A stretch of 5,612 bases of DNA from an uncultured Gammaproteobacteria bacterium (GCA_964522265.1 CAZFVS010000073.1:1-5612); one strand, 5' to 3'. Shown: positions 2,750-5,612, counted from the first letter of the stretch. A program made the numbers and translations. Notes: a model not told the origin generated them from the letters alone.

Positions 2750-3205
2750 CTAAGTCAAATGGAAGGTGGTATGCTTCGAATGGAAGGTGGTATGCTTCGA
2801 GGTGGTATGCTTCGCTAATGGACTAGTTAATTCTGCTTGGTTTGAAGATTTATCGTTTTTCATCTTAAAAAGTTTGATTACTACCCCAATAAATGCGATT
2901 AGATGAATGACTTTAGATACATTTAAAAGAATAATGATTGGGCTTCCGTAGGCAAGGGAGTTGTTTACTTGAATGGCTGTAAATACGGTAAGAACAATTT
3001 CTGAAGAAGCAAGCATTATTGATAAAAATTTTGCTTCTTTCCATAAGCGGATTGTTGCCAGAATAGTAAATATTATTGTTACTAATCCTGAGAGAGCAAC
3101 TAGAATACTTGGTGAAACGAAATTCCCATTATCATCCGTACCTGATGCGATAACTGATAATAGATACGATCCAATTCCGATAATTGCGATTGTTCTATTT
3201 TTCAT
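2750..3205 (-). CDS. Small integral membrane protein (about 4 TM helices), unknown function, repeat-containing C-terminal tail
   Basis: 151 aa with four hydrophobic stretches (IAIIGIGSYLLSVIA, ILVALSGLVTIIFTILATI, IMLASSEIVLTVFTAI, IIILLNVSKVIHLIAFIGVVI). The hydrophilic tail is AKHTT-SKHTTFH-SKHTTFH-LT. I recognise no family. No clear SD precedes the ATG. Confidence 0.6.
   Translation of the reverse strand: MKNRTIAIIGIGSYLLSVIASGTDDNGNFVSPSILVALSGLVTIIFTILATIRLWKEAKFLSIMLASSEIVLTVFTAIQVNNSLAYGSPIIILLNVSKVIHLIAFIGVVIKLFKMKNDKSSNQAELTSPLAKHTTSKHTTFHSKHTTFHLT
2759..2814. repeat. 21-nt tandem repeat, 2 full copies plus a 14-nt partial copy
   Basis: ATGGAAGGTGGTATGCTTCGA at 2759-2779 and 2780-2800 are identical. 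GGTGGTATGCTTCG at 2801-2814 matches unit positions 7-20. The repeat is in frame on the minus strand and encodes SKHTTFH units. Confidence 0.92.
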
Positions 3206-3310: not shown

Positions 3311-3502
3311 TTACCCGCTCTTTTTCTGAACTTGATGTTCTTTTATAAACGAATTCAAATCCTTCTCCTCCACTCTGTAATTTCTTCCGAATTTTACTGC
3401 TTTTAATTTACCACTCCTGATGTATTGATAAACAGTCAGAATATTAAGTTTCAAAAGACTTGCAACGTCTTTTGCTGTTAAGAACACTCTAGTTATCGCC
3501 AT
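3311..3502 (-). CDS. Excisionase/MerR-type helix-turn-helix DNA-binding protein
   Basis: 63 aa. LTAKDVASLLKLNILTVYQYIRSGKLKAVKFGRNYRVEEKDLNSFI matches the typical pattern of the excisionase-family DNA-binding domain (HTH_17-like). Confidence 0.8.
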   Translation of the reverse strand: MAITRVFLTAKDVASLLKLNILTVYQYIRSGKLKAVKFGRNYRVEEKDLNSFIKEHQVQKKSG

Positions 3503-3658
3503 AATATAAATTACTATACACCATATTTATCTTTATTTAGCTATGGTTATTAGTAGTAATTAGATATTGAGTATAGCATATAATATATCAAAAAGCTACA
3601 AGGAGAAGCTGGTCTGTCAGTCCCTTTTTCTCTACCCTAGGCATAGGTAGTAAAAAGT

Positions 3659-3877
3659 ATGCCAGTATCCTCAATTCATGCAAAGTTTGGCAAAAGAATT
3701 CAGTTACTCCGAAAACAAAAGGGTTTAACGCAAGAGGATTTAGCAGATCTTGTAGGTGTTGATAGAAGCTATATGGGGTTTGTGGAAAGGGGAGAGCGAA
3801 ATCCGACGCTTGATAAGATTACAAAAATTGCTAAAGCAGTCAAAATTACGCTATCCGCACTTTTTCAGGGTGTGTAG
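3659..3877 (+). CDS. XRE/Cro-CI family transcriptional regulator
   Basis: 72 aa. FGKRIQLLRKQKGLTQEDLADLVGVDRSYMGFVERGERNPTLDKITKIAKAV is a textbook HTH_3 (XRE) domain. Stop TAG at 3875-3877. Confidence 0.9.
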   Translation: MPVSSIHAKFGKRIQLLRKQKGLTQEDLADLVGVDRSYMGFVERGERNPTLDKITKIAKAVKITLSALFQGV

Positions 3878-3892
3878 TTTACCCGAAATGTC
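3876..3892 (+). repeat. 17-bp direct repeat, copy 1 (AGTTTACCCGAAATGTC)
   Basis: Identical to 5482-5498. It overlaps the last 2 nt of the XRE stop codon. The flanking bases differ on both sides, so the repeat is exactly 17 bp. Confidence 0.9.
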
Positions 3893-3946
3893 AATTTACT
3901 CTGACGAGAGAAACGTCCTTTCTGTAAAAGAGTTTAGGCTATTTTT

Positions 3947-3975
3947 AGGCTCTAAATAACCTAATTTTAGAGCCT
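3947..3975 (+). promoter_or_regulatory. Perfect 10-bp inverted repeat (possible XRE terminator or protein-binding site)
   Basis: AGGCTCTAAA (3947-3956), 9-nt loop, TTTAGAGCCT (3966-3975). There is no clean T-tract after it, so a terminator role is uncertain. TTAGGCT also occurs as a direct repeat at 3933-3939 and 3945-3951. Confidence 0.4.
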
Positions 3976-3994
3976 TATGTATTGTAATGCATAA
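3975..3994 (+). promoter_or_regulatory. Imperfect 20-bp palindrome just upstream of the ATPase promoter (candidate operator)
   Basis: TTATGTATTGTAATGCATAA has 8 of 10 symmetric positions complementary. It ends 4 nt before the -35 element at 3999. The assignment to the adjacent XRE protein is inference. Confidence 0.3.
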
Positions 3995-3998
3995 GAAA

Positions 3999-4027
3999 TT
4001 GCATAAACTGATTTTTTCTACTATAAT
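3999..4027 (+). promoter_or_regulatory. Sigma-70-type promoter for the ATPase gene (leaderless geometry)
   Basis: TTGCAT at 3999-4004, a 17-nt spacer, then TATAAT at 4022-4027. The ATG at 4034 is 6 nt downstream of the -10 element. There is no SD and no alternative start between the upstream in-frame TAA (4004-4006) and 4034. Confidence 0.55.
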
Positions 4028-4033
4028 GCTACT

Positions 4034-5476
4034 ATGCCTCGAACGAAAGATGAGATAAGAGCTTATCTCGAAAATAGGATGACGCTTGGGGAGGATACTC
4101 TCAGGGCTATGACTGTGGATAATAATAAAAAGCCATTACCTGCACGAGCGGTTTTTCTAGTGATAGATAAATATATTAGAGATTTCAGCGATAGAGTTAG
4201 TGCTGAGCCAAGATGGGTCGCCATACCCGGCCTTAGAGGAGTAGGGAAAACTACTTTAGTAGCTCAGCTCTATATAAAGCTTAATTGTTCTAAATACCAC
4301 AAAATATATTTGTCTCTTGATGAAGCATCTAGAAGTTTGGGTACGTCAATAAAAGAACTGCTCGAAGTTTATGAGGAAATGCTGGGAACCCCATTCGAAA
4401 GACTTGACGAACCAGTTTTTATCTTTTTAGATGAGGTTCAGTATGATAACTCATGGGGGATCACCCTTAAAAATATTTACGATAAAGCAAAAAAAGTTTT
4501 TATAATATGTACCGGATCTTCAGCACTTTCTATCCAAACAAACCCTGATATAGCTCGTAGAGTTGTCTTAACAAAAATATACCCGCTAAGCTTTACAGAA
4601 TTTCAACTTATTAAAGATCGGAAATATCCGCTTAGAGGTTTAGGCAATAGCATTAGAGAGGCTTTGTTCAATAGTAAAACAGGCGAAGAAGCATACGATA
4701 ATCTACAATCTCTTCAATGGAAAGTTGATAGTTATTGGAAAGGAATAAAAGATAGCGATATTGAGAGCTATCTTAAGTATGGAACTTTGCCATCAGCTAT
4801 TGCATTACGACAAGAACCGTTAATTTATTCACAAATAAATCAAACCTTAAATAGTGTTTTAAATAGAGATGTTCCTCAACTTAATACATTTGATAAGCAG
4901 ACAATAGATAAACTAAGCCAGATTCTATATACAGTAGCGAGTTATGAGAGTACAAGTTTTAACACTATTTCACAGAACATTGGTTTAGAATTCAGGACTG
5001 TAAGCAGTATTTTTGATGCCTTAGAGAAAACTGAGTTACTAATCCGCATCTATCCGTATGGGCCACACGAGAGTCAAGCACGCAAAGCTTCTAAGTTTTT
5101 GTTTACATCCCCGGCGTTTAGAGCGATGTACTATAATTTAGTAGGTAGCACAGCAACTTTTGATGAATATAAAGGTAAGTTATTTGAGGATGTGATAGGT
5201 TTATATCTGCATCGTATATTTTCAAAAACTGACAATAGTATTACTTATGATAGCGCTCAGGGCGGTGCTGATTTTATTGTCGGTACGAGAATTCCTGGCC
5301 AGGGTGGGGGGATAGTGATAGAAGCAAGCTTAGGAGAGAAAAAGTACGAACAAGTTTATAATACATCTAAAAAAATCAACGCCAGGTATGGTTTTGTGGT
5401 ATCACCTACCAATCTAAAGATTAGTAATGATAAACAATGTTTTGCCGTACCGCTCAAGTTCTTTCTTTTGATATAA
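4034..5476 (+). CDS. AAA+ ATPase of the COG1373 type (AAA_14 NTPase + DUF4143 winged-helix region + C-terminal nuclease-like module)
   Basis: 480 aa. Walker A GLRGVGKTT (aa 66-74). Walker B VFIFLDEVQ (aa 128-136), followed by the family-typical W..LK..D....I.CTGSS......ARR......YPLSFTEF. The middle has the YLKYGTLPSA and LNRDV...D...L..IL..VA motifs typical of DUF4143. The C-terminal GGADFIV...IVIEAS resembles the D...ExK nuclease-like end of this family, but with S where K is usual. Confidence 0.85.
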   Translation: MPRTKDEIRAYLENRMTLGEDTLRAMTVDNNKKPLPARAVFLVIDKYIRDFSDRVSAEPRWVAIPGLRGVGKTTLVAQLYIKLNCSKYHKIYLSLDEASRSLGTSIKELLEVYEEMLGTPFERLDEPVFIFLDEVQYDNSWGITLKNIYDKAKKVFIICTGSSALSIQTNPDIARRVVLTKIYPLSFTEFQLIKDRKYPLRGLGNSIREALFNSKTGEEAYDNLQSLQWKVDSYWKGIKDSDIESYLKYGTLPSAIALRQEPLIYSQINQTLNSVLNRDVPQLNTFDKQTIDKLSQILYTVASYESTSFNTISQNIGLEFRTVSSIFDALEKTELLIRIYPYGPHESQARKASKFLFTSPAFRAMYYNLVGSTATFDEYKGKLFEDVIGLYLHRIFSKTDNSITYDSAQGGADFIVGTRIPGQGGGIVIEASLGEKKYEQVYNTSKKINARYGFVVSPTNLKISNDKQCFAVPLKFFLLI

Positions 5477-5481
5477 AGTAG

Positions 5482-5498
5482 AGTTTACCCGAAATGTC
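5482..5498 (+). repeat. 17-bp direct repeat, copy 2 (AGTTTACCCGAAATGTC)
   Basis: Identical to 3876-3892. It starts 6 nt after the ATPase stop codon (TAA at 5474-5476). In this copy only, CCCGA/TCGGG (5488-5492 with 5497-5501) can form a small hairpin. Confidence 0.9.
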
Positions 5499-5612
5499 GG
5501 GGGATTAAAGTGAGATAGTTAGTAGTTCCTGGGTTTGTTGAAGAGTAAGCTCGGGAAATTCTATCTCTTCTATCCAGGGTCATTGCATTCTAAGGAATTA
5601 AAGGATGGGACA

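Follow-up and report, generated by a model that had tools for sequence, protein, structure and literature searches.

Staphylococcal cassette chromosome (SCC) elements are bounded by 15-bp direct repeats, which start at the 3′ end of rlmH and on which the Ccr serine recombinases act (PMC4723332). One repeat stays behind when an element is excised, and downstream lies a hot spot of variable content that the repeats partition, some partitions being without a recombinase of their own (PMC4723332). Here we describe a comparable arrangement on a contig of an uncultured Gammaproteobacteria bacterium (GCA_964522265.1, CAZFVS010000073.1:1-5612). The whole stretch of 5,612 nt, which makes up the entire metagenomic contig, is called the window below, and other loci fetched for comparison are referred to by L numbers. 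In the window, an exact 17-bp direct repeat brackets a single gene encoding an ATPase of the candidate defence family PDC-S01, directly after a gene for an XRE-family regulator, and a relative carries the same flanks with one near-identical copy of the repeat and no ATPase gene. The nearest relatives of the ATPase and XRE proteins of the window lie in Patescibacteria assemblies (Microgenomates and Daviesbacteria-type).

The event itself is of a known kind, namely an insertion bounded by a duplicated attachment (att)-like core, and the locus is best read as a putative recombination system resembling SCC. In both cases, short direct repeats bound the element (15 bp in SCC and 17 bp here), a conserved gene harbours the first repeat at its 3′ end and is left intact (here at the XRE stop, in L165, L173, L184, and L133), and variable cargo is partitioned by the repeats (here in L133 and L146). 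The SCC enzymes are large serine recombinases, and the motif in the present loci abuts the ends of large-serine-recombinase genes. On the other hand, the present contigs are metagenomic and of the Patescibacteria type, the anchor gene encodes an XRE protein and is not rlmH, the cassette holds one gene in 1.6 kb compared with 20–60 kb in SCC, and what adjoins the site is a truncated recombinase remnant at the border of the neighbouring module.

Morons, such as those of lambdoid phages, and the variable defence hot spots of prophages and satellites, such as those of P2/P4, are a further comparison. The window is similar to them in that a single gene with its own promoter lies between two conserved genes of a module for regulation and recombination (HTH_17, XRE, and recombinase) and that relatives carry different cargo at the same position, whereas an exact flanking duplication of a conserved core is not usually described there. 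Integron cassettes and the dif/pdif modules of the Xer system are likewise small, often single-gene units that occur in arrays, have short bounding sites, and lack their own recombinase. Integron cassettes are usually promoterless, end in an imperfect palindromic attC, and need IntI, and dif-type sites have an 11-6-11 structure. We rejected an integron cassette because the ATPase gene has its own −10 and −35 elements and the window contains neither an attC-like palindrome nor a tyrosine recombinase. A dif/Xer site was rejected because the 17-mer, compared by eye, matched about 8 of 11 positions of the XerD-arm consensus and did not fit the XerC arm. An insertion sequence or DNA transposon was also rejected: there is no transposase and there are no terminal inverted repeats, the repeats around genes of this ATPase family measure 17–397 nt and are not of fixed length, and the target in the window is a conserved motif and not an arbitrary sequence.

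With regard to the cargo, PDC-S01 has been listed as the fourth most common prokaryotic defence candidate, an ATPase fused to a PD-(D/E)XK domain that is experimentally unvalidated (PMC12988326), and DUF4143/COG1373 has been placed in the PD-(D/E)XK nuclease superfamily (PMC3424549). The ATPase plus PD-(D/E)XK architecture of the window protein is as described in these reports (PMC12988326, PMC3424549). In the literature, PDC-S01 appears as a candidate defence gene that is prevalent and horizontally transferred, and the papers found on DUF4143, COG1373, and PDC-S01 make no mention of flanking direct repeats, empty-site alleles, or mobility.

Filled and empty alleles of the locus

The 17-mer AGTTTACCCGAAATGTC occurs on the + strand at 3876–3892 and at 5482–5498. 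These two exact copies are 1606 bp apart from start to start, and no third copy was found in the window when up to three mismatches were allowed. The first two bases of the left copy are the AG of the TAG stop codon of the XRE gene, and the right copy begins 6 nt past the end of the ATPase open reading frame (ORF), whose stop codon TAA is at 5474–5476. Similarity is lost immediately outside the 17-mer at both copies. The initial annotation had reported an exact repeat with these coordinates, this spacing, and diverging flanks, and all of this was reproduced. Its rough pair-count estimate of about 1e-3 for a chance duplication also agrees with Markov simulations of the window, which produced an exact direct repeat of 17 nt or longer in 2 of 1000 runs at first order and in 4 of 1000 at third order; for the given 17-mer, 0.01 occurrences were expected from 200 dinucleotide shuffles. 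A chance rate of 0.2–0.4% is non-negligible if thousands of windows are screened, and the reality of the repeat rests on comparative evidence.

This evidence was obtained from L173 of SRR22387936, whose XRE protein is 85% identical to that of the window. After the XRE stop codon TAG, L173 reads TGTACCCGATATGTC and contains a single 17-mer-like site, AGTGTACCCGATATGTC, which matches the 17-mer at 15 of 17 positions. Homology to window 5499–5580 follows directly past AGTGTACCCGATATGTC, without an ATPase cassette. When window 3589–3892 was joined to 5499–5612 (3893–5498 removed), the joined sequence aligned with L173 at 307 of 382 positions (80%); the alignment was colinear across the junction, and its only gap, of 1 nt, was far from the junction. 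L181 and L184/L185 show the same order of an XRE gene, one 17-like copy, and the same recombinase-remnant segment, again without the ATPase gene. The reconstructed sequence of the empty site is ...GGTGTGTAGTTTACCCGAAATGTCGGGGGATTAAAG....

Since L173 provides the empty allele and the window the filled one, the repeat is the footprint of an insertion, and the locus very probably represents a polymorphism, by insertion or excision, at a conserved core that was duplicated. Its direction would be insertion in the window and not deletion in L173. The initial annotation had proposed that a single-gene cassette was inserted just after the XRE gene and left a target-site or att-site duplication, and had described the empty site to be sought as the XRE stop, a single 17-mer, and the sequence now at 5499 onward. 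L173 has this structure, with the 17-mer-like AGTGTACCCGATATGTC as the single copy, and the cassette is found elsewhere without these flanks (L001 and L008); the proposal is supported.

Dispersal of the 17-bp motif

A scan of metagenome contigs detected the exact 17-mer at 71 loci. At 18 of them, which represent 12 distinct contexts, a conserved unit of about 165 nt has the 17-mer as its outer edge, and a C-terminal fragment of a recombinase adjoins the 17-mer directly, oriented as in the window. On the opposite strand, the unit encodes about 35 codons (WLGRWDDFRTFxWxENIEYPExLxxxTQxLLxIA), which are followed by a stop codon, 6–9 nt, and GACATTTCGGGTAAACT. Searches of Pfam and NCBIfam with this dispersed 35-aa peptide gave noise only. 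The peptide was identified as a recombinase end because of the gene in L159, the sole full-length gene with this tail, which encodes 565 aa with Resolvase, Recombinase, and Zn_ribbon_recom domains and has a motif-like CGGCATTTCGGATAAGATT after its stop codon. The units are nearly all short fragments, several of them with internal stops, and up to three or four occur on one contig.

The unit was also seen, at 1–4 copies per contig and in direct orientation, in L095, L105, L112, L117, L123–L125, L130, L143, L144, and others. Small unrelated genes lie between these copies, and the inner limit of the unit is always at the same codons (WLGRW).

In the window, the right copy (5482–5498) is the edge of such a unit. 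The 3′-end remnant of a large-serine-recombinase gene occupies 5499–5612 on the minus strand, with the stop codon TAA (TTA at 5505–5507 on the + strand); 5576–5508 encodes WIEEIEFPELTLQQTQELLTISL, a stop or frameshift lies upstream of it, and the contig ends at 5612. In tblastn, the unit peptide and the L173 peptide matched the remnant with E-values of 5e-5 and 2e-9, respectively. Because the remnant adjoins the right copy, this copy sits in the usual context of the motif. The earlier statement that no recombinase is present in the window has to be corrected accordingly, as the segment at 5508–5576 on the minus strand is a remnant of a serine-recombinase gene.

The left copy also has counterparts. 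At the junction of the XRE stop with the motif, 17 of 17 positions are matched in L165/L108, 15 of 17 in L173, and 15 of 17 in L184. In L165/L108 (Daviesbacteria; XRE 88% identical), the exact 17-mer is followed by an unrelated SDH-type protease gene, and no second copy was found within 10 kb. In L133, the TAG of a different XRE-family gene overlaps an exact 17-mer, and the motif is absent from L174–L176. The left edge of the 17-mer (AGTTT) is the end of the conserved unit of about 165 nt, and at its right edge L165/L108, L173, and the window mutually diverge straight after ...ATGTC. Each edge of the 17-mer falls on an independent breakpoint, and the sequence is a dispersed conserved motif and not a random target. 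Among viral contigs, the 17-mer had 5 matches (L009/L010 and L011/L013 being duplicate pairs), none of which had a recombinase-fragment or XRE context, and these look like chance matches.

These results bear on two further points of the initial annotation. Its alternative explanation, a conserved gene-end motif recognised by a recombinase, agrees in part with the motif being dispersed at serine-recombinase ends and XRE stops, and is compatible with insertion. It had also held that a common dispersed motif would speak against an insertion; this applies in part, as the motif is dispersed, and it changes the target from a random to a specific site, but the insertion stands.

Other cargo is bracketed by the motif as well. 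L133 consists of the XRE-family gene, the exact 17-mer, about 700 nt, a degenerate copy AGCTCACCTAGAATATC, and a recombinase fragment; the degenerate copy is followed by GTATAA, the same as on the left, and the insert of about 700 nt contains no long ORF but promoter-like sequence and two terminator-like hairpins. In L146, the 17-mer is followed by a dinD-like gene of 362 aa (NCBIfam E-value 4e-102), the 17-like copy ACCTGACTCAAAATGTC, and a recombinase fragment. In L173, L181, and L182, direct 17-like copies bracket a glycosyltransferase module of 5.2–5.7 kb that ends with an XRE gene. The left-hand copy of each pair, 5.2–5.7 kb to the left of the XRE gene, lies about 80 nt upstream of an HTH_17 gene (2339–2355 in L173, 1543–1559 in L181, and 1570–1586 in L182), and reverse-complemented L133 has a 17-like copy at 770–786, again about 80 nt upstream of an HTH_17/MerR-type gene. 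These copies upstream of HTH_17 genes stand directly before conserved promoter-like sequence and beside the start of a divergent gene. The motif thus divides modules of differing content from one another.

In L184/L185, two motif copies lie 7 nt apart at 7219–7275, between the XRE gene and the recombinase fragment, in the order GGTTTATCCGAAATGTC, gtagtac, and TTTTTCCCCGAAATCAT (about 11 of 17 positions matching the 17-mer, by eye). This double copy could be the scar of an excised cassette, or a small insertion.

The cassette and its ATPase gene

The inserted cassette (3893–5481, + strand; 1,589 bp) consists of a 141-nt 5′ region, the ATPase ORF, and a 5-nt tail, and together with one repeat copy it makes up the 1,606-bp insertion. 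The 5′ region (3893–4033, + strand) contains a putative promoter, hairpin arms, and the conserved blocks CTGTAAAAGAG and ATGCATAAGAA.TTG. The −10 element at 4022–4027 is a perfect TATAAT, the −35 element TTGCAT at 3999–4004 matches at 3 of 6 positions, and the spacer is 17 nt. A promoter scan of the window did not call TTGCAT-17-TATAAT, and promoter activity of the 5′ region is suggested by its sequence and by the TTGACA-17-TAnAnT promoters that other members of the ATPase family have in the same place. A 10-bp hairpin is formed by AGGCTCTAAA and TTTAGAGCCT at 3943–3977 (arms at 3943–3952 and 3968–3977), and it is not kept as a hairpin in the homologous cassettes of L001 and L008. Of the features that had been ascribed to the segment between the repeats, the single gene and the 10-bp hairpin were found, whereas "consensus promoter" is too strong for a −35 element with three matching positions.

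The ATPase gene (4034–5476, + strand) encodes 480 aa with AAA_14 (Pfam E-value 9e-26) and DUF4143 (Pfam E-value 7.6e-7; PD-(D/E)XK-type) domains, and D413 and E430 are invariant in the nuclease-type domain. The protein matched six PADLOC models of PDC-S01, the best with an E-value of 6.4e-30, and 1,086 homologues had E-values of at most 1e-20. No exact match to it was found in public assemblies. A scan of genome contigs with the single protein gave no match, an alignment-based scan yielded 80 loci with at most 46% identity, and no relatives were found in the viral contigs searched.

The relatives with 84% (L001), 77% (L008), and 68% (L002; locus L002–L007) identity are on Patescibacteria contigs in three unrelated neighbourhoods. 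DNA homology to the cassettes of L001 and L008 extends from window 3922/3926 to 5476/5477. L001, L008, and L002 have in common the upstream blocks GTGGATAAC-like, CTGTAAAAGAG, ATGCATAAGAA.TTG, and TATAAT, which start within about 10–30 nt of the left repeat, and conservation ends at the ATPase stop codon. As the limits of homology and the upstream blocks match the repeat, the repeat-bounded segment and the conserved cassette coincide. In L002–L007, which are Hainich groundwater contigs, strain variants of one locus occur with or without a HicA/HicB/MazE block and small downstream genes, and the ATPase gene is constant between a 2-hydroxyacid dehydrogenase gene and a SET-domain gene.

An AlphaFold model of the ATPase had a pLDDT of 90 and a pTM of 0.88. 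A fold search with this model returned only STAND and ORC/Cdc6/DnaA-type AAA+ proteins and gave no clue to a role in transposition, and a sequence search of the PDB with the family profile had no match. No transposase or integrase domain was detected in the cassette protein with Pfam and NCBIfam. The cassette ends carry no terminal inverted repeats, and the cassettes of the ATPase family have no conserved termini, their sole common feature being a promoter. Judging from the model, the ATPase would fit a sensor-effector cargo gene better than a recombination enzyme, and most likely it is cargo, that is, a candidate defence gene, and not the insertion enzyme.

Mechanism of the insertion

On balance, we consider it somewhat probable that a circular cassette was integrated at a pre-existing att-like core, site-specific recombination included. 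The ancestral state, which appears to be preserved in the relative, would have been an XRE gene and a convergent large-serine-recombinase gene (now a remnant) with a 21-nt spacer, TTTACCCGAAATGTCGGGGGA, between them; this spacer forms a small hairpin. A cassette comprising one promoter and one PDC-S01-type AAA_14–DUF4143 ATPase-nuclease gene would then have entered the spacer, and the 17 bp from the XRE stop to ...ATGTC would have ended up on both sides of it. For this, a presumed circle with one copy of the core would have recombined with the resident core, and its predicted junction is ...GATATAAAGTAG-AGTTTACCCGAAATGTC-AATTTACTCTG... (also given as ...TTGATATAAAGTAGAGTTTACCCGAAATGTCAATTTACTCTGACG...). 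The recombinase would have been supplied in trans, most plausibly from the large-serine-recombinase family whose gene ends abut the motif. The exact duplication of the core, the empty site, the lack of recombination functions in the cassette, and the position of the core at module limits and recombinase ends together point to such a trans-acting, site-specific integration.

Several observations weigh against this mechanism. There is no intact recombinase in the window, and the adjacent remnant has a stop or frameshift. For typical large serine integrases, attP and attB have only a few bases in common, and an identical core of 17 bp is an exception, as in SCC. The cassette homologues in L001, L008, L002, L177, and L180 do not have the 17-mer, and the ATPase cassette is therefore not tied to this site. 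In other genomes, genes of the ATPase family are bracketed by unrelated direct repeats, which hints at a gene-linked and not a site-linked mechanism. The 17 bp might also serve short-homology recombination without a site-specific enzyme, and the motif, lying shortly before HTH_17 promoters, could additionally or alternatively bind a regulator.

To survey bracketing repeats, the 400 nt before each gene in the fetched loci were compared with the 300 nt after it, the window not being counted. An exact bracketing repeat of at least 17 nt was present at 11 of 85 ATPase-family ORFs and at 1 of 264 ORFs outside the family (Fisher odds ratio 39, p 1e-6), an enrichment that may only reflect a recent arrival of the ATPase genes, as the control genes are mostly old core genes. 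In the first control set, two of the three repeat-bearing genes were distant family members, and the one control gene with a repeat, in L023, is a RhuM/Fic gene. The family repeats are 17–397 nt long and 84–100% identical, and their sequence differs between loci. They include those of L034 (735–1128/2502–2898; 397 nt, 96%), L026 (5593–5839/7435–7681; 248 nt, 84%), L072 (250 nt, 86%), L084 (235 nt, 87%), L035 (at least 55 nt, 100%, reaching the contig end), and L031 (5784–5892/7450–7558). The long repeats are ends of neighbouring host genes, of which the intact copy is kept on one side, and the differences between the copies number 26, 19, and 56 at codon positions 1, 2, and 3, respectively. 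No empty sites for the long-repeat loci were found among the fetched loci, and the closest relatives of the window ATPase (L001, L002, L008, and L177–L180) have no bracketing repeat above background.

There are two alternatives to site-specific integration of a circle at the core. In view of the survey, the gene might be self-mobile, with the AAA_14–DUF4143 protein making variably staggered breaks whose repair leaves a target-site duplication. Such a process would account for a family-wide excess of bracketing repeats, which extended to the distant members in the first control set, and for repeats that vary by locus in sequence and in length from 17 to 397 nt, and the nuclease-type domain with its invariant D413 and E430 would offer an enzyme. 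We nevertheless regard it as improbable: neither conserved termini nor inverted repeats are present in the cassettes, the fold is like that of STAND and ORC-type sensors, staggers of 250–400 nt are without precedent, and the age of the control genes could explain the excess by recent arrival only. Moreover, the edges of the window repeat are those of a pre-existing motif that brackets other cargo too, and the long repeats are imperfect (84–97%) with a third-codon bias, which fits two alleles that evolved as genes and not a fresh duplication. A Campbell-type integration driven by homology, without a site-specific enzyme, is possible, though unlikely. Here, circular or looped DNA would carry the cassette together with sequence of its former flank, and in the window the shared stretch would be only the widely conserved 17-mer. 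This one model covers the variable length (17–397 nt) and identity of the repeats, the third-codon bias, and the lack of cassette termini; the edges of the window repeat equal the edges of shared conservation, the repeats elsewhere are host-gene ends with the intact copy on one side, and the sequence behind the ATPase gene of L017 is homologous to the 3′ segment of the glycosyltransferase gene that L026 has in duplicate. However, efficient RecA-dependent exchange usually requires more than 17 bp, and the model leaves unexplained both the right cassette limit, which is always 0–90 nt past the stop codon, and the strong tie of the 17-mer to recombinase gene ends.

Two other readings do not involve insertion junctions at all. 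The copies could be a regulatory or terminator element, such as an XRE or HTH_17 operator or a bidirectional terminator hairpin. In line with this, 17-like copies precede HTH_17 genes by about 80 nt and border on promoter-like sequence, L159 has two tandem copies upstream of an ORF, and the empty-site spacer folds as a 5–6 bp hairpin between convergent genes. Against it, the empty allele has only one copy and differs by precisely 1,606 bp; in addition, the hairpin energies are unremarkable (z −1.2 and −2.1), copy 1 is without the 3′ half of the hairpin, and the exact 17/17 duplication is left unexplained. We rejected the terminator version, as a small hairpin is present but its energy is unexceptional, and consider it very unlikely that the copies are regulatory elements in place of junctions, while regulatory and att roles may coexist. 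A chance repeat or an assembly artefact has in its favour that repeats of at least 17 nt arise in the simulated windows at the rate given above, so that some are expected in a large scan. The empty-site allele and the independent cassette homologues with matching limits speak against it, the motif recurs at homologous junctions across many independent assemblies, and 17 nt is shorter than assembler k-mers, while a mis-join would produce one junction and not two. The empty site, the XRE junctions in relatives, and the motif census have effectively refuted this reading, and we regard its chances as negligible.

Setting of the cassette in the window

From left to right, the window contains the 3′ part of a sigma-70 gene, a VIT1 gene, a gene for a 228-aa HTH protein, a tRNA gene split by a group I intron, a small membrane ORF, the HTH_17 gene, the XRE gene, the ATPase gene, and, at the right end, a short conserved segment on the minus strand. 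The XRE gene (3659–3877, + strand) encodes a 72-aa HTH regulator (Pfam HTH_3, E-value 1.5e-15), and its stop overlaps the left repeat. Its homologues in Daviesbacteria/Microgenomates-type contigs are 79–88% identical, and the content downstream of them varies. The HTH_17 gene (3311–3502, minus strand; excisionase/MerR-like) matched Pfam HTH_17 with an E-value of 9e-13 and PHROG excisionase families with an E-value of 1e-10. It is divergent from the XRE gene, and the same divergent pair occurs in L176, L181, and L184. No phage structural genes were found in the window, and a small terminase subunit gene is present in the relative L173.

The G+C content is 47–48% in the sigma-70 and VIT1 genes (1–1225) and 30–43% everywhere to the right of 1226. 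This step fits a reading in which the right-hand three quarters of the contig are accessory or mobile DNA surrounding the tRNA gene. The tRNA gene (2209–2546, + strand) is interrupted by a group I intron (Rfam RF00028 at 2232–2499; 63 bits, E-value 1e-14). ARAGORN found no tRNA in the intact sequence and a 73-nt tRNA after trial removal of the intron, with the anticodon Thr-UGU or Tyr-GUA depending on the exact splice points.

The 228-aa ORF at 1509–2195 has an N-terminal HTH and no further domain match. This ORF is also bracketed, by an imperfect direct repeat of about 70 nt at 1268–1340 and 2154–2227, and is thus the second gene of the window between two copies of local sequence. The second copy of this repeat spans the final codons of the ORF as well as the initial bases of the tRNA gene (TCCTCGATAGC), and the first copy has TCCTCGGTAGC. 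A tandem repeat at 2755–2814, with units of 21 and 15 nt (AGGTGGTATGCTTCG x3), lies at the 3′ end of the minus-strand membrane ORF (2750–3205) and encodes a repeated HTTFHSK-type C-terminus.

Implications

The setting of the event and its details are new: a single-gene PDC-S01 cassette occurs in a Patescibacteria-type genome, a 17-bp core goes together with truncated large-serine-recombinase genes in many uncultured lineages, and both the filled and the empty allele are available. The mobile-element biology of the Candidate Phyla Radiation is barely described, and the two alleles of this locus show at base-pair resolution how a single candidate defence gene enters a genome of this group. Patescibacteria and other uncultured lineages may have an SCC-like array system with a 17-bp core and a large serine recombinase. 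If a short core does partition modules beside large-serine-recombinase genes, this would be an SCC-like system outside staphylococci.

With regard to the ATPase family, it is doubtful, yet worth considering, that PDC-S01 genes are themselves mobile single-gene elements, promoter-plus-gene units that duplicate 17 to about 400 bp of local sequence; they may move by means of their own ATPase-nuclease or of a homing arm carried along from a former flank. If so, part of the abundance of the family would reflect selfish spread and not immunity. The repeats that bracket PDC-S01 genes, if upheld in complete genomes, would provide a handle on the turnover of defence islands, and they raise the question of whether the family is defensive, selfish, or both.

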